Virus record (IMG/VR): IMGVR_UViG_3300037311_000193
Span: 1-26,287 of that record
From: a virus
Taxonomy: Duplodnaviria; Caudoviricetes
Strand: one strand, 5' to 3'
Length of the DNA: 26,287 nucleotides
Each line of letters begins with the position of its first letter. The first letter of the stretch is position 1. Position numbers and translations under genes: made by a program. Below the pieces are notes generated by a model, which did no database searches, was not told where the DNA came from, and saw only the letters and a program-made list of their open reading frames with translations. Shown piece by piece: positions 3,514 through 26,287 of this stretch.

Positions 3514-3517
3514 GCCC

Positions 3518-4473: not shown

Positions 4474-4474
4474 C

Positions 4475-5359: not shown

Positions 5360-5361
5360 AC

Positions 5362-5973: not shown

Positions 5974-5984
5974 CAGGCTAGGGC

Positions 5985-7244: not shown

Positions 7245-7250
7245 CGCGCC

Positions 7251-7295: not shown

Positions 7296-7302
7296 TCCGC
7301 CC

Positions 7303-11478: not shown

Positions 11479-11485
11479 TGACGGA

Positions 11486-11513
11486 GGGCGCCCTGGTTCG
11501 CTCCAGGGCGCCC
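11486..11513 (+). other. Strong stem-loop just after the capsid stop (possible mRNA stabiliser or attenuator)
   Basis: GGGCGCCCTGG-TTCGCT-CCAGGGCGCCC forms a perfect 11-bp stem with no U-tract. Confidence 0.55.
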
Positions 11514-11522
11514 GCTGCTGCC

Positions 11523-11705
11523 ATGAAGCAACTGAACGTCAAGGTACTGCGGCCCTTTCTCATCAAGGGCGAGCCCGTCAAGGTCGGCGCCAAGCTGACC
11601 TTCGACGCCCCTCTGGCCTACGAACTCCTGCACGCGCAGAAGGTCGAGGTCGTGCCCGATGCCAAGCCTGCCGGCCAGAAGCCGAGCGCGGGCGAGAAGG
11701 AGTAG
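11523..11705 (+). CDS. Small head-associated protein (60 aa; alternative start 11478)
   Basis: MKQLNVKVLRPFLIKGEPVKVG resembles the small proteins typically found right after capsid genes. Confidence 0.65.
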   Translation: MKQLNVKVLRPFLIKGEPVKVGAKLTFDAPLAYELLHAQKVEVVPDAKPAGQKPSAGEKE

Positions 11706-11709
11706 AGCC

Positions 11710-12078
11710 GTGCTCAACAACGTCGGGTCGATGACGACCTACACCTCCAGCATCAACACCGCCAGCCAGGCGGCCGGCGCGCAGAACGGCGGCTACATCG
11801 ACATCAGCGCCGCCGAGGGCGAGGTGGTCGTGGTCGTGCCGGTGGGCGCCGTCACGGGCTCGGTCGTCGTCAAGGTGCAGGACGCGGACGACACCGGCGG
11901 CACGAACGTGGCCGACCTGGCCGGCGTCACCAGCGGCACCTACAACACCGCCAACAGCGTGCTGAAGCTGACCTTCCCGGCCAGCTCCGCGCGCCGTGCC
12001 GTGCGCGTGGTGGCCACCGTCACCACCGGCCCCATCCTGCTGGGTGCGGCCGTCGGCTTCGTGCCCAAGATCATCTGA
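11710..12078 (+). CDS. Putative capsid decoration/cement protein (122 aa)
   Basis: AAGGAG upstream of GTG; jelly-roll-like pattern (YIDIS...VKVQDADD...RRAVRVVATV); position after the capsid gene. Confidence 0.65.
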   Translation: MLNNVGSMTTYTSSINTASQAAGAQNGGYIDISAAEGEVVVVVPVGAVTGSVVVKVQDADDTGGTNVADLAGVTSGTYNTANSVLKLTFPASSARRAVRVVATVTTGPILLGAAVGFVPKII

Positions 12079-12086
12079 GCGGCGCT

Positions 12087-12359
12087 GTGGCCTTCGTCGA
12101 GAACTTCGCGCCCTTCTTCGCCGACTTCGGCGTCGATGGCACGCTGGCGGGCACGCCGGTGCGGGGCATTCTCGACACGGCCACGGATGTGTACGAAGGC
12201 GAGCTGCTCACGCAGCGGCCCACCTTCCTGCTGGCGCCCGGCGCGGCGCCGGCCGTCGGCCAGTCGCTCGTGCTGGCTGCCGCCACCTACACCGTGCGCC
12301 AGGTGCTGGCCGAGCCGCCGGACGGTGCGCTCAGCCGCCTGGTGCTGGTGAAGGTCTGA
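12087..12359 (+). CDS. Head-tail joining protein (gpFII-like)
   Basis: FFADFGV...VRGILD...YTVRQV...PDG pattern and synteny. Confidence 0.75.
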   Translation: MAFVENFAPFFADFGVDGTLAGTPVRGILDTATDVYEGELLTQRPTFLLAPGAAPAVGQSLVLAAATYTVRQVLAEPPDGALSRLVLVKV

Positions 12360-12362
12360 GCA

Positions 12363-12791
12363 ATGGCGCTGGCAGCCGCTCAGGTCATTGATGCGGTGGT
12401 GGCGCGCGTGGCGCCGCTGGCTGCCATCGGCGGCCGCGTGTCCGCCAGCCGCACATGGCCCTGGGACCAGGCCGAGCTGCCGGCCTGCCGGGTGTTCGCC
12501 ACGGCAGAGGCGGTGCAGCCCACGTCGGTGGGCGACCGCGTCGGCCAGCACACGCTCGACGTCGAGGTGGCCTTCAGCGTGCGCGCGGTGGCCGATCTCG
12601 ACGACCAGATGCACGCGCTGGCCGCCGGCGCGCTGCCGCTCATCTTCGCCGAGCCGGTGCCGTACGGCCTGCAGCTCATCGCCATCAACCGCCGCCTGCA
12701 GGGCGACGGCGAGGCCGCCGTCGGCGTGATCTCGCTGGACCTGCAGGCCACCTTCTTCGCCGCTGCCGCGGCACCCGAGACCATCCTGTAG
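12363..12791 (+). CDS. Tail terminator/completion protein (gpU-like)
   Basis: RVSASRTWPWDQAELPACRV pattern; immediately precedes the tail tube gene. Confidence 0.7.
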   Translation: MALAAAQVIDAVVARVAPLAAIGGRVSASRTWPWDQAELPACRVFATAEAVQPTSVGDRVGQHTLDVEVAFSVRAVADLDDQMHALAAGALPLIFAEPVPYGLQLIAINRRLQGDGEAAVGVISLDLQATFFAAAAAPETIL

Positions 12792-12800
12792 GAGCCTCCC

Positions 12801-13451
12801 ATGGCCATCACTCTCGCCACCGGCACCACCTTCGCCATCGCCAGCACCTATGGCACGGCGTCCAACATGACGGCCATCACCAACGCGGCCGCGGCGGTGG
12901 CCACGCTCGGTGCGGGGCACGGCGTCGTCGTCGGCGACTTCCTCGAGGTCACGTCCGGCTGGGATCTGCTCAACGGCCGCATCGTGCGCGTCAGCAACGT
13001 CGCGACCAACGACGTCACGTTCGAGTCGATCAACACCACGTCGACCACGCGGTACCCGGCGGGCTCCGGCACGGGCACCGTCCGCCGCATCACGGCGTGG
13101 ACGAACCTCAGCCAGATCACCACGGGCTTCGCTGTCAGCGGTGGCGACCAGCAGTTCGCCGACGTCACCACGATCAGCGACCGCATCCAGAAGCAGATCC
13201 CGACGCAGCGCTCGGCCGTCAACGTGACGCTGCCAGTGTTCGACGATCCGGCGCTGGCCTGGGTGAGCGCCGTGCGCACTGCGAGCGAAACCGCTGTCGC
13301 AACCGGCTTCCGCATGATCTTTCCCGACAACTCGCGGCTCGTGGCGAACGCCTACTGGTCGCTGCGCGAGGTGCCGACGGTCGAGGACTCCACGCTGCGC
13401 GGTGAGATCACGCTTTCCTTCGCCGCCCAGCCGGTGCGCTACGCGACCTGA
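12801..13451 (+). CDS. Major tail tube protein (siphovirus)
   Basis: AGGAG RBS; motifs GTTFAIASTYG, GDFLEVTSGW, SGGDQQF and QIPT. Confidence 0.9.
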   Translation: MAITLATGTTFAIASTYGTASNMTAITNAAAAVATLGAGHGVVVGDFLEVTSGWDLLNGRIVRVSNVATNDVTFESINTTSTTRYPAGSGTGTVRRITAWTNLSQITTGFAVSGGDQQFADVTTISDRIQKQIPTQRSAVNVTLPVFDDPALAWVSAVRTASETAVATGFRMIFPDNSRLVANAYWSLREVPTVEDSTLRGEITLSFAAQPVRYAT

Positions 13452-13453
13452 CC

Positions 13454-13822
13454 ATGGCCCTCGCCCGTGACCAAGTCCGCGCCATCGCGCTGCCCGAGGA
13501 GGTCGTCGCCGTCGAGGAGATCGGCGGCGAGGTCATCGTCCGCGGTTGGGACATGGCGCGCCAGCTCCGCTTCTTCGCGGCCCGGCGTGCCGCGCTCGAG
13601 CGCGTGCGCGACCTGCCGCCCGAAGACGCGCAGCAGGTCGCCGCGGGCGAGATGGTGCCGCTCGCGCTGCACCTCGGTGTGGTGCTCGACGACGGCCAGC
13701 CGGTCTACACCGAGGCGCAGTGGGCGGCCTTCGGCGCGATGCATGCTGGGGTGGCCATGGCGCTCTTCGAGCGCGTCATTCGGCTGTCCGGCGCCGACCG
13801 CGCGGCCGAAAAAAAAACCTAA
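13454..13822 (+). CDS. Tail assembly chaperone (gpG-like)
   Basis: Lies between tail tube and tape measure genes and ends EKKT* on an A9 slippery run. Confidence 0.85.
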   Translation: MALARDQVRAIALPEEVVAVEEIGGEVIVRGWDMARQLRFFAARRAALERVRDLPPEDAQQVAAGEMVPLALHLGVVLDDGQPVYTEAQWAAFGAMHAGVAMALFERVIRLSGADRAAEKKT

Positions 13823-14013
13823 GGCGCAGCCCCGAGCTGCGGACTCTGTACAGCCTGGCCGAGCGGCTGCACATGCCGGTGTACCGGCTCATGGCCGAGA
13901 TGCCGGCGCAGGAGTTCGGGCGCTGGCTGGCGCACTTCGACCTGCAGCAGCAGGACCGCGAGATGCCCGCCGACAAGCGGCAGGCGCTGGAGCAGTGGTT
14001 TGAGCTGGAGTAG
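13808..14013 (+). CDS. gpT-like extension reached by -1 frameshift (gpGT = 13454-14013)
   Basis: A9 run at 13809-13817; the -1 frame reads NLRRSPELRTLYSLAERLHMPVYRLMAEMPAQEFGRWLAHF, ending 3 nt before the tape measure start. Confidence 0.8.
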
Positions 14014-14016
14014 CCG

Positions 14017-15972
14017 GTGACCGCGCGCGCGCAGATCGTTCTCTCCGCAACCGACGCCACCGCCGGCGCCTTCGAGGCCGTGCAGGGCCGGCTGCGGCAG
14101 CTGGCTGCGCAGAGTCAGACCGTGGTGTCGCGGTTCGCCGGCCTCGGCACCGCGCTGGCCAGCCTTGGCGCCGCGGCGGGCCTGGCGGCGTTCGCGCGCC
14201 GCGCGCTGGACTCGCTCACCGCCATCGAGGACCTGGCGCAGGCCACCGGTGCCAGCATCGAGAACATCTCGGCGCTGGAGGACGTGGCCAAGCGCACCGG
14301 CACCAGCTTCGAGACCGTCGGGTCGGCGCTGCTGAGGTTCAACCAGTCGCTGGCCGCTGCCAAGCCGGGCAGCGACATCGAGAAGGCGCTGACGGCGCTG
14401 GGGCTCTCGGCGCGCGAGCTGCAGCGGCTGGATCCCGCCGAGGCGCTGCTCCAAACCGGCGTGGCGCTGCAGCGCTATGCGGACGACGGCAACAAGGCGC
14501 GCATCTCGCAGGAGCTGTTCGGGCGCAGCCTGCGGGAGGTGGCGCCGCTGCTCAACGACATCGCCGAGCGCGGCACGCTGACGGCCACCGTCACGGCCGA
14601 GCAGGCCAAGCAGGCGGCTGAGTTCGCCGACCGCCTGGCGTCGCTGCGCGCGAACGTGGAGAACCTGTCGCGCTCCATCGTCAGCGACCTGCTGCCGAGT
14701 CTCAACCAGCTCTTCGAGCGCGCGCGGCGCGAGGGCTTCCTGGCCTCGCTCTTCACTCCGAGCGAGACGGCGCAGCTGCAGCAGCGCGCCACCGAGATCC
14801 AGAACACGCTGTCGCAGGTGTCGCGTGCCTTCGAGCGTGCGCAGGCGCTGAGCGAGCGCGCCGATCTCCCGCCGTCGGCGCGCAACCGGTACGCCGCGGA
14901 CGCCGTCCGGCTGCGCGGCGAGCTGGAGCGTGTGCAGCAGCAGGCCCTGGCCGCCAACGAGGCGGTGAAACGCGCGCTGGGCGGGCCGGATCCGCGGCGT
15001 GCCATCGAGGATCGCGGCTTCGTGCCGGCACGGCCTTCGCTGCCGAACCTGCCGCAGCTCGTGGTCGCGTCGGAGCAGCTCAAGCGCTTCACTTCCAACA
15101 GCGTCGAAGGTGCCGAGGCCTTCGGCGCCGCGCTGCGTTCCATCGAGCAGACCGACACCGCCAAGCTGCGCGCGCTGAACGAGCAGCTGACGGTGCTGAG
15201 CGAACTGCAGCGCGAGACGCGCGGCGACGCTGGCGTGGCCGAAGCGCTGGCCAGCGTGCGCAAGGCCATCGCGGACATCGGCACCAAGTCGCTCGACGCC
15301 GTCGGCCCCACCCAGGCCATGCGCGACGCGCTGGCCGCGCTGGAAGACACCAACGTCGTGCGCATCCAGCAGGTGAGCGCGGCGATCGACGAGCTGTTCC
15401 GCCTTCGTGAGCTGGGCCTCTACGGTCCCGAGGTCGACGAGGCGATCAGCCGCCTGCGCGAGAAGCTGGCCGAGCTGCAGAAGCCGCTCGAGCAGGTCAG
15501 CGAGTTCGCGGCGCAGGCGGCGCGCAACATCCAGGACGCGCTGGGCGATTCGCTGCTGCGCGCCATGGAGGGCAACTTCGACAGCATCGGTGATCTGTGG
15601 AAGGGGCTGCTGCGGCGCATGGTGGCGCAGGCGGCCGCGGCCCAGATCAGCCGCGCGCTGTTCGGCCCGCAGTTCGGCGCCACCGGCCAGATCGGCGGCC
15701 TCATCGGCCAGGGGCTGGACTTCCTGAGGTCCTTCGGCGGCTTCCGCGCTGACGGCGGACCGGTAAGCGCAGGCCGCGCCTACGTCGTGGGCGAGCGCGG
15801 TCCTGAGCTGATGGTGCCGCGCGGCGCCGGCACAGTGGTGCCCAACGGCGCGCTGGGCGCGTCGTACACCTGGGCGCCGGTCATCAACGTCAACGGCAGC
15901 GCCGACACGCGGCAGATCGAAGCGCTGCTCGCGCGCGAGCGCGTGCGCGCCATGCGCGCCTGGGGAGCCTGA
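14017..15972 (+). CDS. Tail tape measure protein (651 aa)
   Basis: Ala/Leu/Gln-rich helical sequence, N-terminal IVLSATDAT, C-terminal FRADGGPV...YVVGERGPELMVP. Confidence 0.92.
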   Translation: MTARAQIVLSATDATAGAFEAVQGRLRQLAAQSQTVVSRFAGLGTALASLGAAAGLAAFARRALDSLTAIEDLAQATGASIENISALEDVAKRTGTSFETVGSALLRFNQSLAAAKPGSDIEKALTALGLSARELQRLDPAEALLQTGVALQRYADDGNKARISQELFGRSLREVAPLLNDIAERGTLTATVTAEQAKQAAEFADRLASLRANVENLSRSIVSDLLPSLNQLFERARREGFLASLFTPSETAQLQQRATEIQNTLSQVSRAFERAQALSERADLPPSARNRYAADAVRLRGELERVQQQALAANEAVKRALGGPDPRRAIEDRGFVPARPSLPNLPQLVVASEQLKRFTSNSVEGAEAFGAALRSIEQTDTAKLRALNEQLTVLSELQRETRGDAGVAEALASVRKAIADIGTKSLDAVGPTQAMRDALAALEDTNVVRIQQVSAAIDELFRLRELGLYGPEVDEAISRLREKLAELQKPLEQVSEFAAQAARNIQDALGDSLLRAMEGNFDSIGDLWKGLLRRMVAQAAAAQISRALFGPQFGATGQIGGLIGQGLDFLRSFGGFRADGGPVSAGRAYVVGERGPELMVPRGAGTVVPNGALGASYTWAPVINVNGSADTRQIEALLARERVRAMRAWGA

Positions 15973-15975
15973 TCC

Positions 15976-17619
15976 ATGCAGCAGTACTCGAGCGTCGTGC
16001 AAGACGCCAACGGCAACGGCATCAGCGGAGCGTCGGTGACCGTCACCCGCGCCGCCGGCGGCGCGGCCACGCTGTACAGCGGCAACGGCACCGGGCTGCT
16101 GGGCAGCAACGTGGTTACCACCGACCCCGGCGGCAACTACGCCTTCTATGCCGCGAACGGGCGGTACACGCTGACCATCACGGCCAGCGGGTTCACGACG
16201 CAGACGCGGGATGTAGTGCTGTTCGACCCGAGCGACGACCGAGTCAACGTGTTCGACCGCGGGGTGATTGGCAATGGTGTCGCCGACGACACAGTCGCAT
16301 TTCAGGCTGCAGTCAATGCCGCGATCGCGGCGCGAAAGGTCCTGTACGTGCCGGCTCACGATGTCGGCCAGTACATCAGGACATCGGCGCCCATCGTGGC
16401 CAACGGGCCGCTGGAGATTGTGTGCGATGGTCCGTTCGGCACCACGCTCTACGGGGTCGGCCTCACGGCTGGTCAGTACGTGCTGGACTTCGACTGCCTG
16501 GATGCCAACCAAGTCGAGCACGTGCGCATCCAAGGGCTCACGATTCGCAGCGACAACGGCGCGCCGCACGGATTGCGCCTGAAGAACGTGGCACAGGTTG
16601 TGGTGGAGCAGACCCGGCTCTATGGGCTCGTGGATGGCATCAACATCGAGGGGACGCGCTGCTACACGCACCGCTTCTCGATGGTGTCGGGTGTCAGCAT
16701 CACCGGGCGCACAGTGGAATGGCTGGCGGGGTTCTCGGGCGGCGGTCAGTTTATCTTCGACAGCTGCACGTTTCTGGGCGCCGAGGGGGCGTTCGTGCCT
16801 TCGACGGCGTTCCTCGACAACCTGTCCTTCTACGGGTGCAACTTCGAGCAATGCACCAGCGGCGTGGTCATCAATGGCACCGTCGCAGGTTTCACGTTCA
16901 GCGGCAGCCGCACCGAGGGCAACGATGCGGCCGACATCATCCTTCGGCCCGTGCTCTCGTCTGAGTACGTCGGCGGCATCGACATCAGCGGCAACGTCTT
17001 CAGCGCCTCGGACGCTTCCGCCACCGCGCGGATCAGCATTGGCGGCGACGCCGGAAAGGTGCGCGGGTTCGCTGTCACCGGCAACGTCGTGACGCACGGC
17101 TCCGATGCGTTCGGCGGCCCGCTCGTGAGTCTCAATGGTGATGGTGAGTCCGGCATCATCGCTGGCAACTTCCTGCGGGGCACCATAGCCACGGCGGTTT
17201 CGGGCTGGCGCTCCGGCGTCGCGGTCTACTCCAACGAGAACCTGGCCGGCAAGTTGCCGGAGGTGGCCGGTATGACCGGCACGTACACAGCGACTGCCAC
17301 GGGCATGACGACATCGCCCACCGGGACGGTGAAGTACACGGCCTTCGGTGGCATGGTGGTGCTCGACATCCCTGCGATCGTGGGCACCAGCAACAGCACC
17401 GCCTTTACGCTCACTGGCATGCCATCGCCCATCCGTCCGGCGGTCGACAAAGACGTGCTCGTACGGATCCAAGACAACGGCGCGGCCATCACTTCGGGCT
17501 ATGCGCGGATCAAGACCACCGGAGTGATCGAGGTTTATGCGAGCCCCAACGGTGCCGCGTTCACGAGTTCCGGGCAGAAGGCGATCAGCACGAACTCGAT
17601 CTCCTACACGCTGGCGTGA
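15976..17619 (+). CDS. Tailspike/receptor-binding protein with pectate-lyase-like beta-helix (547 aa)
   Basis: N-terminal anchor (VQDANGNGISGASVTV...TTDPGGNYAFYAANGRY), GNGVADDTVAFQAAVN entry motif and beta-helix-like repeats (ISGNVF, VTGNVV, IAGNFL). Confidence 0.8.
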   Translation: MQQYSSVVQDANGNGISGASVTVTRAAGGAATLYSGNGTGLLGSNVVTTDPGGNYAFYAANGRYTLTITASGFTTQTRDVVLFDPSDDRVNVFDRGVIGNGVADDTVAFQAAVNAAIAARKVLYVPAHDVGQYIRTSAPIVANGPLEIVCDGPFGTTLYGVGLTAGQYVLDFDCLDANQVEHVRIQGLTIRSDNGAPHGLRLKNVAQVVVEQTRLYGLVDGINIEGTRCYTHRFSMVSGVSITGRTVEWLAGFSGGGQFIFDSCTFLGAEGAFVPSTAFLDNLSFYGCNFEQCTSGVVINGTVAGFTFSGSRTEGNDAADIILRPVLSSEYVGGIDISGNVFSASDASATARISIGGDAGKVRGFAVTGNVVTHGSDAFGGPLVSLNGDGESGIIAGNFLRGTIATAVSGWRSGVAVYSNENLAGKLPEVAGMTGTYTATATGMTTSPTGTVKYTAFGGMVVLDIPAIVGTSNSTAFTLTGMPSPIRPAVDKDVLVRIQDNGAAITSGYARIKTTGVIEVYASPNGAAFTSSGQKAISTNSISYTLA

Positions 17620-17693
17620 CAGTGCAATGTGCCTACCTGCTCTCTCGACGCTGAAGGCTGTGCCCAACCGTTCGCCGATCAGGTCGAGCTGAT

Positions 17694-18350
17694 ATGTCTA
17701 CGGTACTTCTGCCATCCTCGGCGTCTCCAGCCGCGCCTCCCTCCGGCACCGTCGACTGGCCCTCCGACCGCTTCATGCTGCCCGCCGCCGTCCGCTTTGG
17801 CGTGCGCCCGGCGCGTTCAGCCTGGTCGGCCGTGTACACGCGCCAGCGTCAGCAGGTCTCGCACTTCGCCGACCGCCTGACCGTATCGCTGGCGCTGCCG
17901 CCCTGCGGCCCGGCCGACGGCGGGCGGCGCGAGGCGTGGCTGAACTACCTTGCGGCCGAGTCGCCGTGGGTGCGCCTGCGGCACTTCGTGCGGCCGGTGC
18001 CCATGGGCACGTTGCGCGGCACGCTCACGGTGGCGGCCGAGGCGGTGGCGGGCCTGCGTAGCGTCACGCTCAACACCGGGCAACCAGGCGCCACGCTGCT
18101 GGGTGGCGATGTACTCGGCGCCGGCGGGCGCCTGCTGCCCGTGGCCTACGCCGGCGCCGTGGCCGACGGCTCAGGTGTCATGATCGTGCCGCTGCAGGTT
18201 CCGCTCCGCGCCACCCTGGCCGCCGGCAGCGCCGTGACCTGGAGCCAGCCCACCGGCGCCTTCCAGTTCGAGGGCGACGGCCTCGAGCTCGACTACTCGC
18301 CCGGCCTGCTGCAGCGCGGCGTGGATCTGCAGTTCGTGGAGGTGGTGTGA
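17694..18350 (+). CDS. Putative distal tail protein
   Basis: Position downstream of tape measure/tailspike; RPVPMGTLRG and TLLGGDVLG...PLRA pattern. Confidence 0.65.
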   Translation: MSTVLLPSSASPAAPPSGTVDWPSDRFMLPAAVRFGVRPARSAWSAVYTRQRQQVSHFADRLTVSLALPPCGPADGGRREAWLNYLAAESPWVRLRHFVRPVPMGTLRGTLTVAAEAVAGLRSVTLNTGQPGATLLGGDVLGAGGRLLPVAYAGAVADGSGVMIVPLQVPLRATLAAGSAVTWSQPTGAFQFEGDGLELDYSPGLLQRGVDLQFVEVV

Positions 18351-18922
18351 GGGCGCTCAACGCGGCCGCCCTGGCTCTGCTGGACAGGATGGCGGCCGGC
18401 GAGGCGCTGCCGATGCCGCAGCTGGTGGAGATCATGACCACCGTGCCGCAGCGCTACACCACCGGCGGCTACCCGCTGACCTGGGGCGGCTTCACCTGGC
18501 AGGCCGTCGGGCTGGCCATCGAGCCCATCGAGGACGAGGCTGGCAACGGCGACCCCTCGCAGATCACGCTGGCGCTGCCGGCAGTGACGTCGAAGCAGCT
18601 CGCGTTGGCGCTGGTCGAGCCGATCGACGGCGTGCGCGTGCGCATCTATGACGCGCTGGTGGACCCGGACACGATGGTCGTCGAGCACGCCGAGCTGGTC
18701 TGGAGCGGCACCGCCAACACGCCCGGCATCGACGACGGCGACGTGGCCACGATGACCATCCTGTGCGAGCACCGCGCCGCCATCGCCTTCAGGCCCAAGG
18801 CCAGCCGCTACACCAACGACGAGCAGCAGCGGCTTTACCCCGGCGACACCGCCTTCGACTATGACCCAGGCCTGGACCGCGGCAGCGTGGTGTGGCCGGC
18901 GGCCAGCTTCTTCAGGCAGTAG
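18347..18922 (+). CDS. Putative tail hub/minor tail protein (gpL-like position)
   Basis: GTGA overlap; LTWGGFTWQAVG and RYTNDEQQRLYPGDTAFDY motifs. Confidence 0.75.
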   Translation: MRALNAAALALLDRMAAGEALPMPQLVEIMTTVPQRYTTGGYPLTWGGFTWQAVGLAIEPIEDEAGNGDPSQITLALPAVTSKQLALALVEPIDGVRVRIYDALVDPDTMVVEHAELVWSGTANTPGIDDGDVATMTILCEHRAAIAFRPKASRYTNDEQQRLYPGDTAFDYDPGLDRGSVVWPAASFFRQ

Positions 18923-18924
18923 GC

Positions 18925-21525
18925 ATGAGCCGCTGGGGTTCCGCGTTCCGCATCATCGGCTCGGCGCTGCTGTCGCCGTTTGTCGGCTGGGGCCTGTTCC
19001 TGTCCACGGTGCTGGCCGAGGATGGGCGCCGCCGCCGCGACCGCGCCAACCGCGCCGCGCGCAACGCCTACAACGAGAGCCTGGTCGACCGCGTGCAGAT
19101 GCTGGACGTCTCCGCGGACCCGGCTCGCCGGCTGGCCATGGGCCGCGTGCGCGTGGGCGGCCAGATGCTGCGCCAGCCCTGGAGCACCGGCGCCAACCGC
19201 GAGAAGCTGACGATGGTGCTGGAGTTCGCCGGGCACGAAATCGACGCCTTCGAGGGCTGGTACGCCGACGACCTGCCGCTGACGCTGGACGGCAGCGGCT
19301 GGGTGCAGACCGCCCCCTACTTCAAGTCGCGCACGGAGTCGGGTCTGGTGTCGGGCGCGCTGAATGGGTCGGGCGGCGCCACTGTCACCCTGCCGCAGAC
19401 GCCGCTGTCGCCGCCGGCCGGCAGCATCGCGGCCACGTGGGCCGAGGGCAGCGGCGAAGGGCAGATCGCCGGCTCGCTCACCTACAGCGTGGCGGGCAAC
19501 GTCGTCACGCTGTCGGGTGGGCCGGCGGGCGCGCTGTACAACGTCTCCTACCAGTACAGCACGGGCACCAGCCTGCTGCGCATCCGCTCCTGGCGTGGCA
19601 CGCCGACGCAAAGCGTGGGCGGCGAGATCGCGGCGGAGTACCCCGGCGACATGCGCGCCACCGACCACTACCGCGGCGTGGCGCTGGCGGTGGTGGACAT
19701 CTTCTTCGACAGCGACGTCTTCACCAGCGGGCCGCCGCAGATCAGCGCACTGCTTCGCGGCGCGCGCGTGTTCGATCCGCGCACGTCCACCACGGCCTGG
19801 AGCCAGAACCCGGCACTGCTGAAGCGCTGGTATGCGCTGCACGCCAACGGCCTGGCCATGCCGGCCGACGAGCTGCGCGACGCCGACGTGATCGCCGATG
19901 CCAACGTGGCCGACATCAGCACCGCGTTCACCGTGCGCAAGCCCGACAACAGCACCGAGGTGGTGACGCTGCCGCGGTACCGCGCCAGCCTCGTCGCTGC
20001 CACCGATGCCGACCCGCGCGAAGTGTGGGGCGAGCTCATGGAGGCCGACGCCGGCAAGTGGGGATGGCAGGGCGGCGCACTGCGCATGCGCTGCGGTGCG
20101 CTGCGCAGCTCCAGCGGCACGGTGGGGCCGGACTGGATCTTCCGCGTGGCCGGCGAAGGCGCACGCCAGGGCGAGGCCTTGGTGCGCATCACCAACGCGA
20201 TGCCGCGCGAGCGCAAGGTGAACATCGTGTCGGGCAAGTGCGTCGACCCGGCGCAGCGCTACCAGGTGCTGCCGTTCCCGAGCGTGCGCGACTCGGTGCT
20301 GGTCGCGCGCGACGGCTCGTTCCCGCTCGAGGTGGAGCTGGGCGCCGTCGACCACATCGCCCACGCCCAGCACTTGGCCAGCATCATGATCCGCGAGGCG
20401 CAGGCGCCGCTGCGCATGGAGATGCAGACGGGCCTGCGCGGCTACCGCTGCGAGCTGTTCGACGTCTTCCTGCACGACCACCCTCGCTACGGCATGAACC
20501 AGAAGCCGATGGAAGTGATCGGCTGGCGCTGGAGCCCGAGCGAAGGTGTGAGCCTGCGCTGGGCCGAGATCAGCGCGGCGCTGTTCACCCCGCAGGCGGA
20601 GCTGCGCGGCCGCGATCCGTCGCCCGACAGCAACCTGCCGCTGCCGTGGGATGTGCCGCGCGTCACCGGCCTGGACGCCACCAGCAACACCACGGCGGTG
20701 GCCGACGGCAGCATCATCACCCGGCTGGTCGTCACCTGGGATGCGGTGGCGGCGTTGACCGTGGCGGCCAGCGGCGAGATCGAGGTGCAGTACCACGATC
20801 TCACGCAACCACTGCCGGCTGGCGACTGGGCGAGCTGGAGCGAGCGCGGGGACGCCACGAAGGCCGTCATCCCGGGCGTGCGCAGCAACACCCCCTATGC
20901 AGTGCGGGCGCGTGCGATCCGCGGCGTGCCATACGTGCGCGGCGACTGGTCGGTGCAGGATGTGGTCGTGACCGGATCGCGGCGCCAGTCGCTGATCTAC
21001 CGGCAGGCCTCGGAACCCACCGGGGCCACCGTGCTCGACGGCGATGAGTGGTATGACACCGACAACGGCAACCGTCACCACGTGCGGGCCGCCGGTGCTT
21101 GGGTCGCGGTGGAGGTTGGCTCGGGAGGCTTGGCGCCGAATGCGGCGTCGGTCGTGACTTTCGACGAAAACGACTTCGCAGGCGCCGGTGCGACTGGGGG
21201 CAGCTATACGGTGCGCCGGTCGTTGGTGGTGACGCCATCAGTCGACTGCACGATCGAGTTCACCGCCAATGCCACGGCCCAGGGCGTTCACCCCGACAGC
21301 GCGCAGAACCTCGAGTGGTGGGCTGTGCGAACTGGGTCGAGCGACCTGGCGCTCGGGTACGCGAACTTCGGCGGCACGACGACGACCGGAACGGCTCAGG
21401 CCACCGCGTCCTTCGCCGCCACCGCCGGCGTTGCCATCACCTTCGAGCTGCGCACCCGCGCGGGCTCCGGCGTCAGCGTGAAGCTGTGGCAGTCCCAGAT
21501 GCGTGTGACGGAGGTGAGGCGATGA
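18925..21525 (+). CDS. Tail tip/central fibre protein (gpJ-like)
   Basis: AMGRVRVGG, GHEIDAFE, RGARVFDPRT...WSQNPAL, an FN3-like segment and DGDEWYDTDNGN. Confidence 0.85.
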   Translation: MSRWGSAFRIIGSALLSPFVGWGLFLSTVLAEDGRRRRDRANRAARNAYNESLVDRVQMLDVSADPARRLAMGRVRVGGQMLRQPWSTGANREKLTMVLEFAGHEIDAFEGWYADDLPLTLDGSGWVQTAPYFKSRTESGLVSGALNGSGGATVTLPQTPLSPPAGSIAATWAEGSGEGQIAGSLTYSVAGNVVTLSGGPAGALYNVSYQYSTGTSLLRIRSWRGTPTQSVGGEIAAEYPGDMRATDHYRGVALAVVDIFFDSDVFTSGPPQISALLRGARVFDPRTSTTAWSQNPALLKRWYALHANGLAMPADELRDADVIADANVADISTAFTVRKPDNSTEVVTLPRYRASLVAATDADPREVWGELMEADAGKWGWQGGALRMRCGALRSSSGTVGPDWIFRVAGEGARQGEALVRITNAMPRERKVNIVSGKCVDPAQRYQVLPFPSVRDSVLVARDGSFPLEVELGAVDHIAHAQHLASIMIREAQAPLRMEMQTGLRGYRCELFDVFLHDHPRYGMNQKPMEVIGWRWSPSEGVSLRWAEISAALFTPQAELRGRDPSPDSNLPLPWDVPRVTGLDATSNTTAVADGSIITRLVVTWDAVAALTVAASGEIEVQYHDLTQPLPAGDWASWSERGDATKAVIPGVRSNTPYAVRARAIRGVPYVRGDWSVQDVVVTGSRRQSLIYRQASEPTGATVLDGDEWYDTDNGNRHHVRAAGAWVAVEVGSGGLAPNAASVVTFDENDFAGAGATGGSYTVRRSLVVTPSVDCTIEFTANATAQGVHPDSAQNLEWWAVRTGSSDLALGYANFGGTTTTGTAQATASFAATAGVAITFELRTRAGSGVSVKLWQSQMRVTEVRR

Positions 21526-21697: not shown

Positions 21698-22015
21698 ATG
21701 AACGAGAACGACCAGCACGCCGTGGCGCGCGATGAGCCGAAGCGCAAAGAGCGCTGGCACGTCGGCAAGGAGATCCCGCTCGCCGTCATCTTCGGCCTGC
21801 TGATGCAGACCGGCGGCCTGGTGTGGTGGATGCGCGGGCTGGTTGCTACCGACCACGACCACGAGAAGCGGCTGGCGCTGCTGGAGCGCGAGCGCGAGAC
21901 GGGGCGGCTGTCCGAGCGCGTGGCCGTCATCGAGCAGGCCGTGGTGGACATCAGGCGCAGCACGGAGCGCACCGAGTCGCTCCTGGCCGAAGTCATCAAG
22001 AACGGGCGGAAGTGA
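21698..22015 (+). CDS. Single-TM coiled-coil lysis-module protein (putative holin/antiholin)
   Basis: WHVGKEIPLAVIFGLLMQTGGLVWW transmembrane segment followed by a coiled coil; first gene of the lysis cluster. Confidence 0.6.
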   Translation: MNENDQHAVARDEPKRKERWHVGKEIPLAVIFGLLMQTGGLVWWMRGLVATDHDHEKRLALLERERETGRLSERVAVIEQAVVDIRRSTERTESLLAEVIKNGRK

Positions 22016-22287
22016 TGCCTGCCGTGCTGCTGCGACTGCTGACGCCCCAGAACTGGAAGCGCGGCGTGGCGCTGGTGATCCTGTGGTGCTACGGCTACCA
22101 GCTCTGCGCGTGGCCGGCGCTGACGTGGGCGGCGGCGCTCGTCTCGGCTGCCACAGGCGCAACGTGGCCGGGGCCGCCCCAGCTTCCCTGGGAGGCCATG
22201 CTGGCCGGCACCACCACCCTGGCCGCGGTGGGTGGCCTGGAGACGTGGCGCGAGCAGGTTCACCACAAGATGGGGAGTTCGACATGA
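22015..22287 (+). CDS. Putative holin (resembles the GTA 3TM holin family)
   Basis: TGATG overlap, hydrophobic segments (WKRGVALVILWCYGYQ...PQLPWEAMLAG), directly upstream of the endolysin. Confidence 0.6.
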   Translation: MPAVLLRLLTPQNWKRGVALVILWCYGYQLCAWPALTWAAALVSAATGATWPGPPQLPWEAMLAGTTTLAAVGGLETWREQVHHKMGSST

Positions 22288-22745
22288 CCGACGAACGTCT
22301 GCAGCAGTCCTTCTGGCTTTCGGAGTTTCTTCGCTCCGACACAGGCCAGCGACACGGGATCGACAACACCCCCAACGCCATCGCGCTGGCGAACCTTCGG
22401 CACGTGCTTGCGCCGGGAATGCAGCGCGTGCGCAACCTGCTGCGGGAGCCCGTGTTCATCACCAGCGGATACCGCTCGCCCGCGGTCAACCGACTGGTCG
22501 GTGGCAGCGCCTCCTCCCAGCACTCGCAGGGCTTGGCTGCCGACTTCGTGTGCCCCGAGTTCGGGCCGCCGCGCGCCATCTGCCGAAAACTGCTGGAGCA
22601 TGCGAGCGAGGTGCGGTACGACCAGCTCATCTTCGAGGGTGCCTGGGTGCATGTGTCGTTCGTTCCAACGGCGCCGCGCGGTCAGGTGCTGACGGCGCAC
22701 TTCACGGCCGGGGGCGGTGTGACATACACGCCCGGACTGTCGTGA
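22284..22745 (+). CDS. Endolysin, peptidase M15A family
   Basis: LSEFLRS, ITSGYRS, SQHSQGLAADF and DQLIFEGAWVHVSF provide the Zn ligands H/D/H. Confidence 0.9.
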   Translation: MTDERLQQSFWLSEFLRSDTGQRHGIDNTPNAIALANLRHVLAPGMQRVRNLLREPVFITSGYRSPAVNRLVGGSASSQHSQGLAADFVCPEFGPPRAICRKLLEHASEVRYDQLIFEGAWVHVSFVPTAPRGQVLTAHFTAGGGVTYTPGLS

Positions 22746-23167
22746 TCTGGACTCACGTGGCAGCCGCGATCGGCGCGGCCGCTCTTGCCTTCGCCGGCGG
22801 CTGGCAGGTGCGCGCATGGAAAGCCGGCAACGACGAGGCCGCGGTGCTGCGTGCGGCCCAGGTCGCGGCTGAGCAGCACGCCCAGACTGCCGCCCAGGAG
22901 GCCACAGCCCATGAACGCACCCGCCAAGCCCTGCAGCGCGCGCTGCGCCAGCGCCACCCTGCCGTCGACGCCGCCCTGGCCCGGCCGGTGTGCCCAGACC
23001 TCGCGGTCGGTGGCGCCGCCGCGCCTGCGCTGGCGCTGGGCGATGTGGTCGTGCCTGCTGACGCTCTCGGCCGGCTGCGCGTCGCCGCCGGCGACCATCA
23101 CCCTGACGGCGCTGCCGGCGAATCTGGCGCAGCCCTGCGACCCGGGCCCACCGATCCCGACCGCTGA
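22742..23167 (+). CDS. Inner-membrane spanin (Rz-like)
   Basis: GTGA overlap; N-terminal TM (AAAIGAAALAFAGGWQVRAW) followed by an Ala/Gln-rich helix. Confidence 0.75.
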   Translation: MIWTHVAAAIGAAALAFAGGWQVRAWKAGNDEAAVLRAAQVAAEQHAQTAAQEATAHERTRQALQRALRQRHPAVDAALARPVCPDLAVGGAAAPALALGDVVVPADALGRLRVAAGDHHPDGAAGESGAALRPGPTDPDR

Positions 23168-23270
23168 GGTGCGCCTGGCCGACCTGCTCGAGGTCTGGGC
23201 GCAGCGGGAAGCCGCCGCGGCCGAGTGCCGCGACCGCGTGGTGCGCCTGCAGCGCGCCTGGCCGCACTGA
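23010..23270 (+). CDS. Outer-membrane lipoprotein spanin (Rz1-like; start uncertain)
   Basis: Overlaps Rz in a shifted frame; lipobox LSAG-C, Pro-rich LPANLAQPC and AECRDR. Confidence 0.75.
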   Translation: MAPPRLRWRWAMWSCLLTLSAGCASPPATITLTALPANLAQPCDPGPPIPTAEVRLADLLEVWAQREAAAAECRDRVVRLQRAWPH

Positions 23271-23427: not shown

Positions 23428-23486
23428 CTCGAAATCCGGTGTACGGGTCTCCCGTACCGAGGGTTCGAATCCCTCCCTTTCCGCCA
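23428..23486 (+). mobile_element. Phage att core = 3' half of tRNA-Ser(CGA)
   Basis: CTCGAAA anticodon loop, long variable arm GTACGGG-TCT-CCCGTAC, T-arm GAGGG-TTCGAAT-CCCTC and acceptor 3' strand CCTTTCC-G-CCA. No matching 5' half (GGAAAGG, D-arm) upstream; lies 29 bp from the integrase stop. Confidence 0.9.
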
Positions 23487-23515
23487 GTGTGCGGGACTTC
23501 TCTCCAAGTTCAGGC

Positions 23516-24469
23516 TCACCGCTTGCGCCCTCCGATGCGCCCCACGGCCTGCGCCAGCGTGTCGTGGGTGAGGTGAGCATACCGCTGGGTACTGCGCGGG
23601 TCGCGATGCCCCAGGACGCGGCCGACGGTGTACAGGTCCACCCCCGCGTTGACCATCTCGCTGGCGGCGCTGTGCCGCAGGTCGTGGAAGTGCGCGTGCC
23701 GTAGGTCTGCAGTCGCGCGGGCGCGCTCGAAGGCGCGCTGGATGGTGATCTTCGGCCCTGGCAGCGGCAGGTGGCTGACCAGGTGCGCGATCTTGGGATG
23801 GATCGGCACGGCGCGGCGGTCGCCGTTCTTCGTGTCCTCAAGCAACAGGGCGCTGCCGTGCGGCTCGGCCCGCATGATCTCGCCCAGGCGCAGGCCGGCG
23901 TAGAAGGCCACGCGGATGGCGATCTGGGCCTGCCAGTTCGTGCAGGCCCTGCAGATCCGCAGCATGTCGCGCCGGCTGAGGTAGACGTGGCGCTCGTTGC
24001 GCACGCTCGGCAGCGGCATGCGCGCCGTGGGGTCGGCGTCGACCAGGCCGTGCCGCTTCCAGGCCCAGCGCGCCGCGGCCTTCAGGCAGGCCAGCCGGTT
24101 GCGCACGGTGGAGGCGCTGGTCTCGCTGCGCTGGATGACCTGCTGGGCCACCTGTGGCAGTTCGGACAGCCGGCGGCCGGCGTAGGCCCAGGCGATGGCA
24201 GCCAGGTGCTCGGCGGTGGACCTGTAGCTCTTGAGCGCGGTCTTGTCGCGCAGGTAGAGCACAACGGCTTCGTCGATCAGGGGGTCGCGTCGCTCGACAC
24301 CAGTCGCAACAGCCCAGAGTCGCGCGGTTTCCTTGACGTCGTAAGCGTCAGCTTGGGCTTGACTCCAGCCTTTCGGAAGTAGGCGGCTAAGGCGGTGGCG
24401 TCGACCCTCAACGACACGGTCGAACTCGAAGCGCCAGCGCTTGTTGCGGGTGTCCCAGCGGATCGGCAT
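23516..24469 (-). CDS. int: Phage tyrosine integrase (317 aa)
   Basis: Starts MPIRWD; catalytic residues GLRLGE (R), TKNG (K), HDLRH, LGH and TQRYAH (Y); adjacent to the tRNA-derived att core. Confidence 0.93.
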   Translation of the reverse strand: MPIRWDTRNKRWRFEFDRVVEGRRHRLSRLLPKGWSQAQADAYDVKETARLWAVATGVERRDPLIDEAVVLYLRDKTALKSYRSTAEHLAAIAWAYAGRRLSELPQVAQQVIQRSETSASTVRNRLACLKAAARWAWKRHGLVDADPTARMPLPSVRNERHVYLSRRDMLRICRACTNWQAQIAIRVAFYAGLRLGEIMRAEPHGSALLLEDTKNGDRRAVPIHPKIAHLVSHLPLPGPKITIQRAFERARATADLRHAHFHDLRHSAASEMVNAGVDLYTVGRVLGHRDPRSTQRYAHLTHDTLAQAVGRIGGRKR

Positions 24470-24621
24470 CGGAGGCGGTACTGTTCCACGTCGGCGGGGT
24501 CGAAGCGTACCGCGCCGCGGCCGGCCCCGACGCGGTACCGCGGCAGATCGCTCTCGTCGATGTCGTACACCGCACGGACGCTGAGCCCCAGCAGTGGCGC
24601 GACTTGGGCGGCCGTCAGCAT
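24277..24621 (-). CDS. xis: Excisionase-like HTH protein (114 aa)
   Basis: MLTAAQVAPLLGLSVRAVY...RYRVG...VRFDPADVEQY is a Xis/HTH_17 pattern; directly upstream of and overlapping int. Confidence 0.85.
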   Translation of the reverse strand: MLTAAQVAPLLGLSVRAVYDIDESDLPRYRVGAGRGAVRFDPADVEQYRLRCRSAGTPATSAGASSSTVSLRVDATALAAYFRKAGVKPKLTLTTSRKPRDSGLLRLVSSDATP

Positions 24622-25655
24622 GCGGCGGGCATCCTGTCAAGCGGGCTAATGGTGCCGCGTGCACAGACAGAGCCGACGACGTGGGTGTAGATCGTCGTCG
24701 TCTCGATGTCCTTGTGGCCGAGCAGCTCCTGGATCGTGCGCAGGTCAGTGCCGGCCTGCAGCAGGTGGGTGGCAAAGCAGTGGCGCAGCGTGTGCGGTGT
24801 CGCGGGCTTGCCGATGCCGGCCGCGCGCGCCGCGGCCTTCATGGCCCGCTGGACGGTCCAGTCGAAGATGTGGTGTCGGCGCCGTTCGCCTGTCTCGGGG
24901 TTGGTGTGGTAGTCCTCCGTCGCGAAGACGTACTGCCACGCCCACTCGCTGCCGGCGCGCGGGTACTTGCGGGCCAGGGCGTTGGGCAGGTCGACGCTGG
25001 CGTGGCCGGTGGCCAGATCCAGGTGGTGCCAGCGGCGGCGCTCCTCGAGCAGCTGCGCCAGCTTCGGGACCAGCACGCGCGGCACCATGGTGACGCGGTC
25101 CTTGTCGCCCTTGCCGCCCCGCACGGTGAGGCGCAGCTGCTGCAGGTCGAGATCCTTGACGCGCAGGTTCTGGCCCTCGGCCAGGCGCAGACCCGTGCCG
25201 TACAGCAGCTCGAGGAACAGGCGCGCGCGGCCTTGCACCTGGCCCAGCAGTGCGCGCGTCTCCTCGACCGAGAGCACGACGGGCAGGCGCGTCGGCTGCT
25301 TGGCGCGCACGATGTTGTCGACCCAGCCGATCTCGACCTCGTAGACCTTCTGGTACAGGAACAGTAGCGCCGCCAGCGCCTGGCGCTGCGTGCTGGCTGA
25401 CACCTTGCGCTCGGTGGCCAGCCAGGAGAGGAAATCGCCGACCTCGATCTGCCCCAGCTCGCGCGGCGAGCGCTGCGCCCAGTGAGCGAACAGGCGGATC
25501 CAGTGCCAGTAGGCAGCGAAGGTGTGGCGGCTGTAGTGGCGCACCGCGCAGGCCTGCTGCACCGCCTGGCGCAGGGTGCGCGGGCGGGTGTCGCATAACG
25601 AGGGCGCGGCGTCGGGCTTAACCGGCGGCGGGCTTGTGGCGACAAGGGCTTGCAT
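24615..25655 (-). CDS. intI: Integron integrase (346 aa)
   Basis: N-terminal RHYSRHT...FLSWLATERKVSASTQRQALAALLFLY; catalytic GLRLAE, GKGDKDR, HTLRHCFATHLL, LLGH and IYTH; integron-specific insertion HHLDLATGHASVDLPNALARKYPRAGSEWAWQYVF; C-terminal SPLD. Confidence 0.95.
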   Translation of the reverse strand: MQALVATSPPPVKPDAAPSLCDTRPRTLRQAVQQACAVRHYSRHTFAAYWHWIRLFAHWAQRSPRELGQIEVGDFLSWLATERKVSASTQRQALAALLFLYQKVYEVEIGWVDNIVRAKQPTRLPVVLSVEETRALLGQVQGRARLFLELLYGTGLRLAEGQNLRVKDLDLQQLRLTVRGGKGDKDRVTMVPRVLVPKLAQLLEERRRWHHLDLATGHASVDLPNALARKYPRAGSEWAWQYVFATEDYHTNPETGERRRHHIFDWTVQRAMKAAARAAGIGKPATPHTLRHCFATHLLQAGTDLRTIQELLGHKDIETTTIYTHVVGSVCARGTISPLDRMPAAC

Positions 25656-25668
25656 AGTGCGGTGGCGG

Positions 25669-25707
25669 CGTTATGCGACGGTGGTGTCTGCTGAATTCAC
25701 GTTAGGC
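25669..25707 (+). mobile_element. attI: Putative attI site (crossover G|TTAGGC at 25701|25702)
   Basis: GTTRRRY core 46 bp upstream of the intI start, with no attC-type L boxes before it. A second direct GTTATGC lies 31 nt upstream, similar to the accessory repeat of attI1. Confidence 0.7.
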
Positions 25708-26180
25708 GTCACGCAAAACCCATGTTCTGCTCCACCAGCGCCCATTCATTCGGGCCGTGCCGCTGGTACGTGCGCCCGGACAGCGGGCCTTCCAGCACGA
25801 TGCGCCAGTCGTGGTCAGGGTCAGCCGCTGCCATCGCTTCGGCCTGCGCGCCGGTCATGTAGGCATCGTCTGCCGTGTCCTCGTCCACGGTCGGCTCGGT
25901 GTAAACCGGCTCGCCATCACGGTGCAGCGCGGCGTAGCCAAAGCCCACCGCAATTTGTCCTTCGGCCGGGAAGTAGCTGGGGCGCGGCCCGCAGTTCAGG
26001 CAGCCGCCGTGTTTGCCTTCAATCGCGGGCAGCTTGGCCCAGGTCGTTGCTTCGGTCATGGGTTCCTTTCCGGCGCCAGTGACGCCTAACACTTCGGTCA
26101 ACGCGACCCGCCACGGCGGGCCGCTCCTTCACGCTTCGGGGCCGTCAGTGCGCGCCGTGTCGGGCGCGTTACCTCGGGCG
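25702..26180 (+). mobile_element. Integron gene cassette 1 (479 bp)
   Basis: Bounded by GTTAGGC at both ends. The left junction GTTAGGCGTCAC (25701-25712) is the exact reverse complement of GTGACGCCTAAC (26079-26090), as expected for a once-circular cassette. Confidence 0.85.
25709..26059 (-). CDS. Cassette 1 hypothetical protein (116 aa, CxxC)
   Basis: GGAAAGGAA RBS before ATG 26059; the ORF fills the cassette and its TGA abuts the core site. Confidence 0.85.
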   Translation of the reverse strand: MTEATTWAKLPAIEGKHGGCLNCGPRPSYFPAEGQIAVGFGYAALHRDGEPVYTEPTVDEDTADDAYMTGAQAEAMAAADPDHDWRIVLEGPLSGRTYQRHGPNEWALVEQNMGFA

Positions 26181-26186
26181 TTAGGC
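26084..26186 (+). mobile_element. attC: attC site (103 bp)
   Basis: R'' GCCTAAC, 5-nt spacer, L'' GGTCAACG ... L' CGTTACC, 6-nt spacer, R' GTTAGGC. Extra C26099 and A26106 give the extrahelical G and T on the bottom strand, and the inner stem is CCCG.CACGGCG/CGCCGTG.CGGG. Confidence 0.93.
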
Positions 26187-26287
26187 CCCAATGCCTTGCG
26201 CAGCGCAGCCATGTGTTCGTCCATCAGCCCGTTGGGGTCCCATACTCCGCCACGCACCACGGTCCACGCAGTGATGCAGCGTTCAGC
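26129..26287 (-). CDS. 3' end of the cassette 2 ORF (start outside window)
   Basis: The open frame ...AERCITAWTVVRGGVWDPNGLMDEHMAALRKALGPNARGNAPDTARTDGPEA* stops inside the attC. Confidence 0.6.
   Translation of the reverse strand, partial: AERCITAWTVVRGGVWDPNGLMDEHMAALRKALGPNARGNAPDTARTDGPEA

Follow-up and report, generated by a model that had tools for sequence, protein, structure and literature searches.

Integrons are gene-swapping devices known mainly from bacteria, and the mosaicism of phage genomes is commonly put down to recombination, homologous or illegitimate. The window, by which we mean the whole stretch of 26,287 nt analysed here, raises the question of whether a phage can possess an integron of its own and use it to acquire and reorder its accessory genes, as the original prediction held. 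The locus has the parts of an integron, its cassette genes are inverted, its integrase IntI belongs to a phage-restricted clade, and different cassettes stand at the same attI GTT. The reading that we favour is that a phage-adapted integron with inverted cassettes likely reshuffles small early genes.

Phage backbone, IntI and attI

The phage late genes reported from the sequence were confirmed with Pfam and PHROGs. A head and tail block occupies 3..21525 on the + strand, with a terminase (3-1592), a lambda-type portal (7841-9472) and a protease-capsid fusion (9469-11478) by Pfam, and a tail set of major tail, tape measure, distal tail and tail tip proteins by PHROGs. Likely lysis genes follow (21698..23270, +), including an Rz-like spanin (22745-23167, +; PHROGs, E 1e-4) and a gene (22286-22745, +) that is called endolysin-like from its position only and gave no family match in profile searches of Pfam, PHROGs and NCBIfam. 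The predicted tRNA-Ser att core is the 3' part of a tRNA-Ser(CGA) gene (attP core, 23429..23487, +) and was common to all six phage att regions aligned; the two top bacterial matches to the att region span this segment alone, and for the tRNA of the att region the best bacterial matches were 87-88% in five genomes. A whole tRNA called by ARAGORN at 23394-23486 was rejected, as bacterial and phage alignments keep just 23429-23487, and the limitation of the bacterial matches to this segment identifies it as the 3' part rather than a whole tRNA. Both int and xis are present as claimed: int (23516..24469, -) encodes a phage tyrosine integrase of 317 aa (PF00589, phrog_1) whose relatives are 42-75% identical in the best 27 of 50 viral loci, and xis (24277..24621, -) an excisionase-like HTH protein (HTH_17, phrog_66). 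The record thus has several marks of a temperate phage, namely virion genes, integrase, excisionase and attP core. It stops at 26287, inside the cassette array, and a 1,794-nt contig extends it rightward.

Beside xis lies intI (24615..25655, -), encoding an integron integrase of 346 aa that scored 399.6 bits against TIGR02249 in a profile search (cut-off 265) and matched VchIntIA (2A3V) with E 2.6e-70, aligned over residues 32-342. The original description of an enzyme with all catalytic residues and the ALARKYP motif was borne out: the integron-specific insertion is intact, with ALARKYP beginning at residue 226, and of the residues that we take to be catalytic, all 120 close homologues share R157, K182, H288, R291 and H314, and 119 of them Y323. 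Values of dN/dS between 0.13 and 0.43 in seven of seven pairs indicate that intI is under purifying selection. Three contigs on record, the longest of 38,169 bp, encode an identical IntI (P0241). The end of intI and the beginning of xis overlap by 7 nt, and among the repeats listed there were no IS-like or transposon ends, in agreement with the claim that none separate the two genes. A chimeric join, the possibility raised at the outset, was checked against contigs of runs X2 and X3, which derive from one sample of a second study and bridge it at 23992-24652 and 24208-24769, respectively.

A clear ribosome-binding site is absent upstream of the intI start in the window. Consensus scans, which can miss promoters in 70% GC DNA such as this, detected neither a sigma-70 promoter nor a terminator within 23200-26287, and the DNA upstream of intI gave no LexA box. 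A perfect inverted repeat of 10 bp brackets the intI start codon, with arms at 25590-25599 and 25670-25679; both arms are largely kept in an alignment of 20 loci, and the repeat is likely to provide accessory IntI binding sites. The attI site (25670..25707, +) has its crossover after G25701, 45 nt from the intI start codon. Sequences of relatives are alike up to the GTT and differ beyond it, and contigs fork within attI at 25703-25704, as expected had the attI-like site been read correctly. The site is conserved and specific to the IntI clade; when 13 loci from an attI pattern search were mapped, L210 proved to be a chance match and L216 a site without intI.

Cassettes with inverted genes

Cassette 1 spans 479 bp (25702..26180, +) with GTT cores at both ends, and its gene (25709..26059, -; 116 aa) is antisense to attC. 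The attC of 103 bp (26084..26186, top strand +) carries the R''/L''/L'/R' boxes; its bottom strand folds well (z -4.5, equalled by 0 of 200 shuffles) compared with a z of -2.2 for the top strand, and the complete cassette that had been proposed thereby stands. The scanner that we built for attC sites made 0 calls in 602,110 shuffled bases and recovered three sites, on the expected strand, from a class 1 control. Cassette 2 begins at 26181, and the 3' end of its gene (26129..26287, -) runs off the end of the record, just as a second cassette start had been noted; its reading frame crosses the crossover and ends within the attC of cassette 1.

Both cassette genes of the window are on the - strand, antisense to attC and in the same direction as intI-xis-int. 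With intI on - and the attC top strand on +, the geometry of intI, attI and attC is regular and the genes are flipped. In a canonical integron the cassette genes lie on the attC top strand; here they do not, and both belong to conserved families. This inversion means that the array cannot operate in the manner of a bacterial one driven from Pc. The antisense orientation is a feature that the original prediction had missed.

The cassette 1 protein has 436 homologues, its near relatives (76-85%) sit in attC arrays in seven of seven viral loci, and homologues were found in nine phage records and 0 plasmids. Searches of Pfam, PHROGs and NCBIfam gave no match to the protein and Atlas none that was usable, and for 49 aligned members of its family Pfam gave no convincing match. 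Its structural model (pLDDT 89.6) had no Foldseek match at E <= 0.001 and a best VIA-align Z of 3.5, a missing fold match that does not establish a new fold. Relatives of the cassette 2 gene occur in eight viral loci (77-97%), in a family of 97 proteins. At the crossover, 76 of 85 of these proteins carry Pro-Asn, with 75 distinct tails, and identity in the family is 0.89 before the crossover versus 0.15 after it. Across 142 attC sites, stop codons gather at +1 (26) and +8 (19) from the crossover. One locus (L244) has a gene of the cassette 2 family directly at attI, ahead of intI.

A phage IntI clade and variable first cassettes

In the phylogeny of IntI that had been called for (112 rows), the window falls into one 33-member clade with an SH-aLRT of 99, comprising the window, 23 IMG/VR records, five metagenome contigs and four genome contigs, nearly all of them phage or prophage. 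Cassette genes inside the clade were 77 antisense, two sense and six ties (85 in all), compared with nine antisense, 73 sense and 15 ties (97) outside it; per locus, the antisense to sense ratio was 23:0 versus 2:22, counts that are not independent because clade members are related. Orientation by codon model missed AT-rich bacterial cassettes, for which reason a longest-ORF test and a combined rule were added, and a codon-free test was less clean, with 29 antisense, 15 ties and nine sense among viral intI loci. A phage integrase lies at most 1.5 kb downstream of intI in 22 of the 27 clade loci that could be assessed, compared with 0 of 57 outside, so the proximity of intI to a phage integrase recurs among viruses, and the layout repeats with unrelated tyrosine and serine integrases. 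Bacterial IntIs were at most 56% identical to that of the window, one 2.6-kb contig excepted, in 40 of 64 parts of a genome scan, and INPHARED yielded nine IntI records, all below 60% and none a clade member.

The closest relative, L001 (IntI 86%), is a 40.2-kb provirus in which a cro-like repressor gene is followed by eight attC sites and then intI; here the array does reach a phage repressor gene, the check that had been proposed for the window. Repressor-family genes lie upstream of the array in both L001 and L002, and L007 bears a duplicated cassette. Around the 27 closest int relatives intI was absent from the flanks fetched, from which it follows that the integron module is optional. Among capsid relatives, five of seven scanned loci had no attC in flanks that may not reach the early region.

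Contigs from sequencing runs join the same attI to three different first cassettes. In run X1, from which the window may itself derive, two paths lead out of attI. Cassette 1 makes up a separate 489-nt contig there, entered either from attI or from a contig whose end is an attC right arm, and likewise left by two paths; in X2 and X3 a nearly identical intI-attI is followed by a third first cassette. The attI junctions fall at GTT, with homology downstream of only a few bases. Contig depths in X1 were 17.9 for cassette 1 and 16.3 and 15.9 for its entries, and as these do not sum, the graph paths are inferred. No clean joint skipping cassette 1 was among the joints listed, and contigs drop rare forms. 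The varied first cassettes at one attI fit the idea of a phage integron that acquires and reorders accessory genes. The original interpretation is supported, and neither the bridged xis-intI join nor the layout of L001 refuted it.

Origin and use of the integron

We put at roughly 0.8 the probability that this is a phage-resident integron, its cassette genes co-oriented with intI-xis-int, whose own IntI likely moves the cassettes and whose cassettes the early-left promoter likely transcribes. A single transcript, started by a promoter under repressor control at the array's far end, would pass through attC bottom strands, cassettes, intI and xis; IntI would therefore be made upon infection or induction, at a time when DNA replication can leave attC single-stranded. 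The enzyme would insert by attC x attI and excise by attC x attC recombination, as in bacterial integrons. With insertion at attI and the promoter at the far end, the newest cassettes would be the ones most distant from that promoter, which turns the bacterial Pc rule around. Where a gene has no stop at the crossover, whichever site precedes it would supply a new C-terminal tail, and phages with arrays and no nearby intI might borrow the enzyme in trans. Accessory genes in the arrays include methylases and an Acb2/Tad1 protein. A broader proposal, to which we give even odds, is that temperate phages of Proteobacteria harbour a virus-specific integron branch whose pool of inverted cassettes is largely separate from that of bacteria, acting as a lytic-timed, site-specific engine of early-gene mosaicism that shuffles counter-defence genes, rewrites C-termini at each move and serves co-infecting phages that have arrays and are devoid of intI.

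It is unlikely that the arrays owe their reshuffling mainly to an integron integrase of the host, or to homologous recombination by the phage at repeated attC sites, with the phage's own intI carried along as a dispensable passenger. Some arrays, both beside close int relatives (L157 with 10 attC, L159 with five) and around cassette 1 relatives (L050-L056), have no intI in the flanks fetched, which would suit such a scheme; IntI genes are common in one betaproteobacterial family, at 141 of 317 genomes, L008 and L053 have genes for single-strand annealing upstream, and two intI copies (L212 and L213) are truncated. Against this scheme stand purifying selection on intI, invariant active-site residues and a conserved, clade-specific attI, together with junctions at the attI GTT that share so few bases downstream. 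We regard it as considerably less probable still that IntI has mainly been co-opted for secondary integration, dimer resolution or regulation via the start-codon repeats, with cassette movement as a side effect. The conserved inverted repeat around the intI start and two loci (L002 and L004) where intI adjoins xis-int with 0 attC called point that way, but most clade loci have a separate integrase, the integron-specific insertion is intact and cassettes vary at attI.

Recent capture of a host chromosomal integron, a prophage border or a misassembly is the least probable account and is largely refuted. Most published phage integrons are captures according to the accessible text of PMC9892861, the record ends within its array, and in Denitromonas (L075) a clade member is followed by host-type genes without an integrase. 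In the window, however, the attP core lies between the lysis genes and int, on the side opposite from intI, and this position of the intact attP places intI inside the phage. Contigs of the second study span the att region as well as the xis-intI join, and both the recurrence of the layout with unrelated integrases and the occurrence of cassette 1 homologues in nine phage records and no plasmid speak against capture. On the phage-resident reading, an integron in the early operon would let small accessory genes, among them methylases and an anti-defence protein, be exchanged by a site-specific route, and a platform of opposite gene polarity would alter the relation of cassette position to expression. 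Environmental surveys that take every intI or attC as bacterial would count phage ones too.

Phage integrons have already been published, mostly as host or transposon captures (Qi 2023, PMC9892861). The accessible part of that paper describes three complete phage integrons and one In0, which are two pieces of the integron of a Vibrio host, a P1 mosaic of class 1/Tn402 type and, in a cryptic prophage, an integron of Shewanella type, 95% identical to the host species' enzyme; it also reports recombination of phage attC sites by IntI1. Those phages resemble the window in having intI, attI and attC cassettes in phage genomes and in their methyltransferase cassettes, but their IntIs are 41-54% identical to ours, and the same part of PMC9892861 contains no account of an IntI clade particular to phages, of inverted genes or of a place beside xis-int. 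Unlike in the window, every annotated gene upstream of intI in M16-3 faces away from it, and the CALIN of TJE1 is forward by attC scan. Our literature search found no published account of an inverted phage integron lineage, and nothing relevant on linker or boundary sequences.

Class 1 (IntI1/attI1) and sedentary chromosomal (VchIntIA) integrons share with the window the integrase family, the attC anatomy, the bottom-strand folding preference and an array pointing away from intI. In those systems the cassettes lack promoters and are transcribed from Pc next to attI, and LexA usually controls intI, as far as the available sections of PMC11551772, PMC8876359 and PMC5027507 go, whereas in the window the genes are antisense and consensus scans found no Pc-like promoter or LexA box. 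Its IntI is 51-54% identical to IntI1, and the locus is not of the class 1/Tn402 type. Inverted-integrase integrons, as presented in the accessible portions of Cury et al. (2016; PMC4889954) and PMC13323075, are alike in that intI faces the same way as the cassette genes, but they flip intI relative to attC, whereas the window flips the genes. Here intI is on - and attC on +, so that intI does not lie on the attC top strand. The lambdoid early-left operon ends in xis-int, and the lambdoid order of repressor, small variable genes, xis, int, att and lysis is shared by L001, L003, L006, L008 and L011. What sets these loci apart from the lambdoid operon is that attC sites delimit the variable genes and that there is a second recombinase.

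The integron and its phage surroundings

The record is 26,287 bases long, all of it within the window, and carries plus-strand head and tail genes up to 21525 (Pfam or PHROGs matches), followed by likely lysis genes and, at 23429-23487, the 3′ part of a tRNA-Ser(CGA) gene. Aligning six phage att regions leaves this stretch as the only one common to all, the best two bacterial matches span it alone, and we read it as a putative intact attP core. Beyond it, on the minus strand, lie int (23516-24469), xis (24277-24621) and intI (24615-25655), the xis start and the intI stop overlapping by 7 nt. The original prediction of a tRNA-Ser att core, int, xis and intI following phage late genes was borne out by Pfam, PHROGs and TIGR matches and by the att alignment. 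Since attP lies beyond int, away from intI, the latter lies inside the phage, integrated or not. Elsewhere in the backbone, seven ORFs lacking a PHROGs match are found between the terminase and a head-tail joining gene (1930-7244), an odd site for a block so large, and a 547-amino-acid tail-spike-like protein with a pectate-lyase-like domain is encoded between the tape measure and distal tail genes (15976-17619), in a stretch of lower GC content.

Against TIGR02249 the integrase reaches 399.6 bits, the cut-off being 265; its residues 32-342 align to VchIntIA and, among the residues that we take to be catalytic, all of the 120 closest homologues retain R157, K182, H288, R291 and H314, and 119 of them retain Y323. 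As originally claimed, it is a true IntI by sequence; dN/dS is 0.13-0.43 across seven intI pairs. An attI-like site had also been proposed and is upheld by a crossover at G25701, where conservation among relatives reaches GTT and gives way to divergence, while the anticipated attC (26084-26186) folds best as its bottom strand (z -4.5, 0 of 200 shuffles as good; top strand z -2.2) and the first cassette has the expected size of 479 bp. Judged by integrase, attI and attC, the element is an integron with predicted recombination activity. A perfect 10-bp inverted repeat (25590-25599 and 25670-25679) flanks the intI start codon and could possibly mediate autoregulation through IntI binding; one arm, within the coding sequence, encodes a Leu-Cys/Gly-Asp motif present in 74 of 120 homologues. 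At a related locus (L216:887-939), attI and the intI-start motif are kept without intI, and lysis-type genes come next.

Antisense cassettes and the IntI clade

A feature absent from the original prediction is the orientation of the cassette genes. The first, a minus-strand gene for 116 amino acids at 25709-26059, runs antisense to attC and co-directionally with intI-xis-int, and the minus-strand frame of the second cassette represents a conserved family. The first protein has 436 homologues, and each of its seven closest viral loci (L051, L052 and L054 being near-duplicates) has an attC array on the strand opposite to the gene, while the neighbours differ. Our home-made attC scanner, trained on these phage sites, made no calls in 602,110 shuffled bases and assigned the forward orientation to each of two controls, one a class 1 integron and the other phage TJE1, so that a mistake over strand does not account for the inversion. 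Measured from the crossover, antisense stop codons are most frequent at +1 (26) and +8 (19) over 142 attC sites, of which 26 have no gene end close by. At 25 of the 142 (arrays in loci L053, L056, L157, L159 and others), attC contains the start predicted for the antisense gene that comes next, and attC can thus also provide N-termini.

Scanning viral records for IntI gave 49 loci, 38 with a near full-length protein, and the seven closest relatives (65-86%) are all viral; bacterial IntIs peak at 56% among the best 80 kept from 40 of 64 parts scanned, bar one 2.6-kb contig at 69%, and 56% is also the maximum in 317 further genomes of one family, among them one unpublished genome that contributes to this count alone. 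A tree of 112 rows (31 viral, 71 genome, 5 metagenome, 4 references and the window), from which we removed 14 loci that duplicated or nearly duplicated others, along with any row containing stops or having fewer than 250 aligned residues, groups the window with 23 viral, 5 metagenome and 4 genome contigs in a clade of 33 (SH-aLRT 99), from a short search with SH-aLRT support only and an outgroup not confined to one side of a branch. Cassette genes in this clade are 77 antisense, 2 sense and 6 tied, against 9, 73 and 15 outside it, or 23:0 versus 2:22 antisense to sense by locus, counts that overstate independence because clade loci are kin. When orientation was judged by the longest ORF, independently of codons, viral intI loci came out as 29 antisense, 15 tied and 9 sense, and genome loci as 11, 13 and 65, a weaker split that counts against a clean inverted-cassette picture.

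Of 27 assessable clade loci, 22 have a phage integrase no more than 1.5 kb downstream, versus 0 of 57 loci outside the clade. The neighbouring integrases include unrelated tyrosine and serine types, and PHROGs adds a serine integrase undetected by this test at L114, a locus that also carries terminase, portal and capsid genes. In the closest relative, a 40.2-kb, 95% complete provirus (L001), the order is a cro-like repressor gene, eight attC sites and intI. Counting against the pattern, intI is truncated at L212 and L213, and L075 belongs to the clade yet is followed by genes that are presumably host-type. The latter locus, from cultured Denitromonas halophila SFB-3, carries its intI together with two inverted cassettes where a contig ends, in a genome with four IntI-like matches. 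One phage with a clade intI (L004) encodes Avd and a reverse transcriptase at 4141-5885, likely a diversity-generating retroelement.

Viral IntIs of a second, distinct group (L027, L028, L030, L034, L035, L036 and L038), 44-51% identical to that of the window and six of them forming a clade (SH-aLRT 99), have intI mid-operon; same-strand attC-like sites lie downstream in L027 and, weaker, in L036 and L038, which looks like an inverted-integrase design within phages. The virus Rctr41k (L152) also has intI mid-operon, and the attC scan gave no call there.

Signs of cassette movement, and cassette cargo

In run X1, which may be the source of the window, the attI contig stops at 25703 with two exits, the window's cassette and another contig of 579 nt. 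The first cassette, on a 489-nt contig without differences, has two entries, one from attI and one from a contig of 3,632 nt that terminates in what looks like the right arm of an attC (matching by eye how one L056 attC ends), and exits to contigs of 1,794 and 421 nt. Most simply read, these are variants that occur together, one having gained further cassettes at attI before the first; as the linkage of the two extra contigs is presumed and depths do not balance, the cassette may instead be shared with a second phage. Runs X2 and X3, one sample of a different study, match the window at ≥99% from intI through attI up to 25704 and then enter a third cassette.

The second cassette's family offers a separate line of evidence. 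A conserved end motif occurs in 85 of 97 proteins, 76 of these 85 have Pro-Asn at the crossover, and 75 distinct tails follow, mean identity being 0.89 over the 12 residues before the crossover and 0.15 over the 12 after. A gene of this family lies directly at attI, ahead of an intI, in L244, and one cassette is duplicated in L007.

Most of the 143 genes scanned in or adjoining arrays have no Pfam match; those matched include Dam, N6/N4 and C5 methylases, two PAPS-reductase domains, an RNA ligase and an ASCH domain, and no toxin-antitoxin or resistance families were found. One Acb2/Tad1 protein exceeded the cut-off and one fell below it; the former gene (L159:5944-6228) is in an attC array with no intI nearby. 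The first cassette's protein was modelled confidently (pLDDT 89.6) with no match in structure comparison, and has distant homologues in nine Bacillus phage records and none in plasmids.

A proposed mechanism and known integrons

We propose, with a probability of about 0.8, that transcription starting at a repressor-controlled early-left promoter reads across the bottom strands of attC and on into intI and xis. Infection or induction would then bring about IntI synthesis, and the enzyme would act on attC bottom strands, its usual substrate for recombination (PMC5027507). Scans of 23200-26287 for sigma-70 promoters and terminators, and of the region upstream of intI for a LexA box, were negative; both are weak in GC-rich DNA, and the window's intI has no clear ribosome-binding site.

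Shuffling by a host IntI or by homologous recombination seems improbable. In its favour, many arrays lack intI in the fetched flanks, and two of the 27 closest int relatives have arrays at the same position (10 and 5 attC sites), where intI is absent from the fetched flanks of all 27. That IntI serves another purpose we regard as very unlikely. Still less credible is capture or misassembly; contigs of the X2/X3 study span the xis-intI join, which speaks against a chimera.

The accessible portions of PMC4889954, PMC9024848 and PMC13323075 do not describe this layout, nor does that of Qi et al. 2023 (PMC9892861), which reports three complete integrons among 10,705 phages, derived from host or transposon integrons, and demonstrated recombination of phage attC sites. 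In literature where subscription journals were thinly covered, we came across no description of a phage lineage of IntI with inverted cassettes. The window belongs to none of the canonical Pc-driven, class 1 or inverted-integrase types and, unlike Pc-driven arrays (PMC11551772 and PMC8876359), the proposed phage array would receive new cassettes at the position farthest from the promoter. The window contributes contig branching at the crossover and exchanged C-terminal tails.
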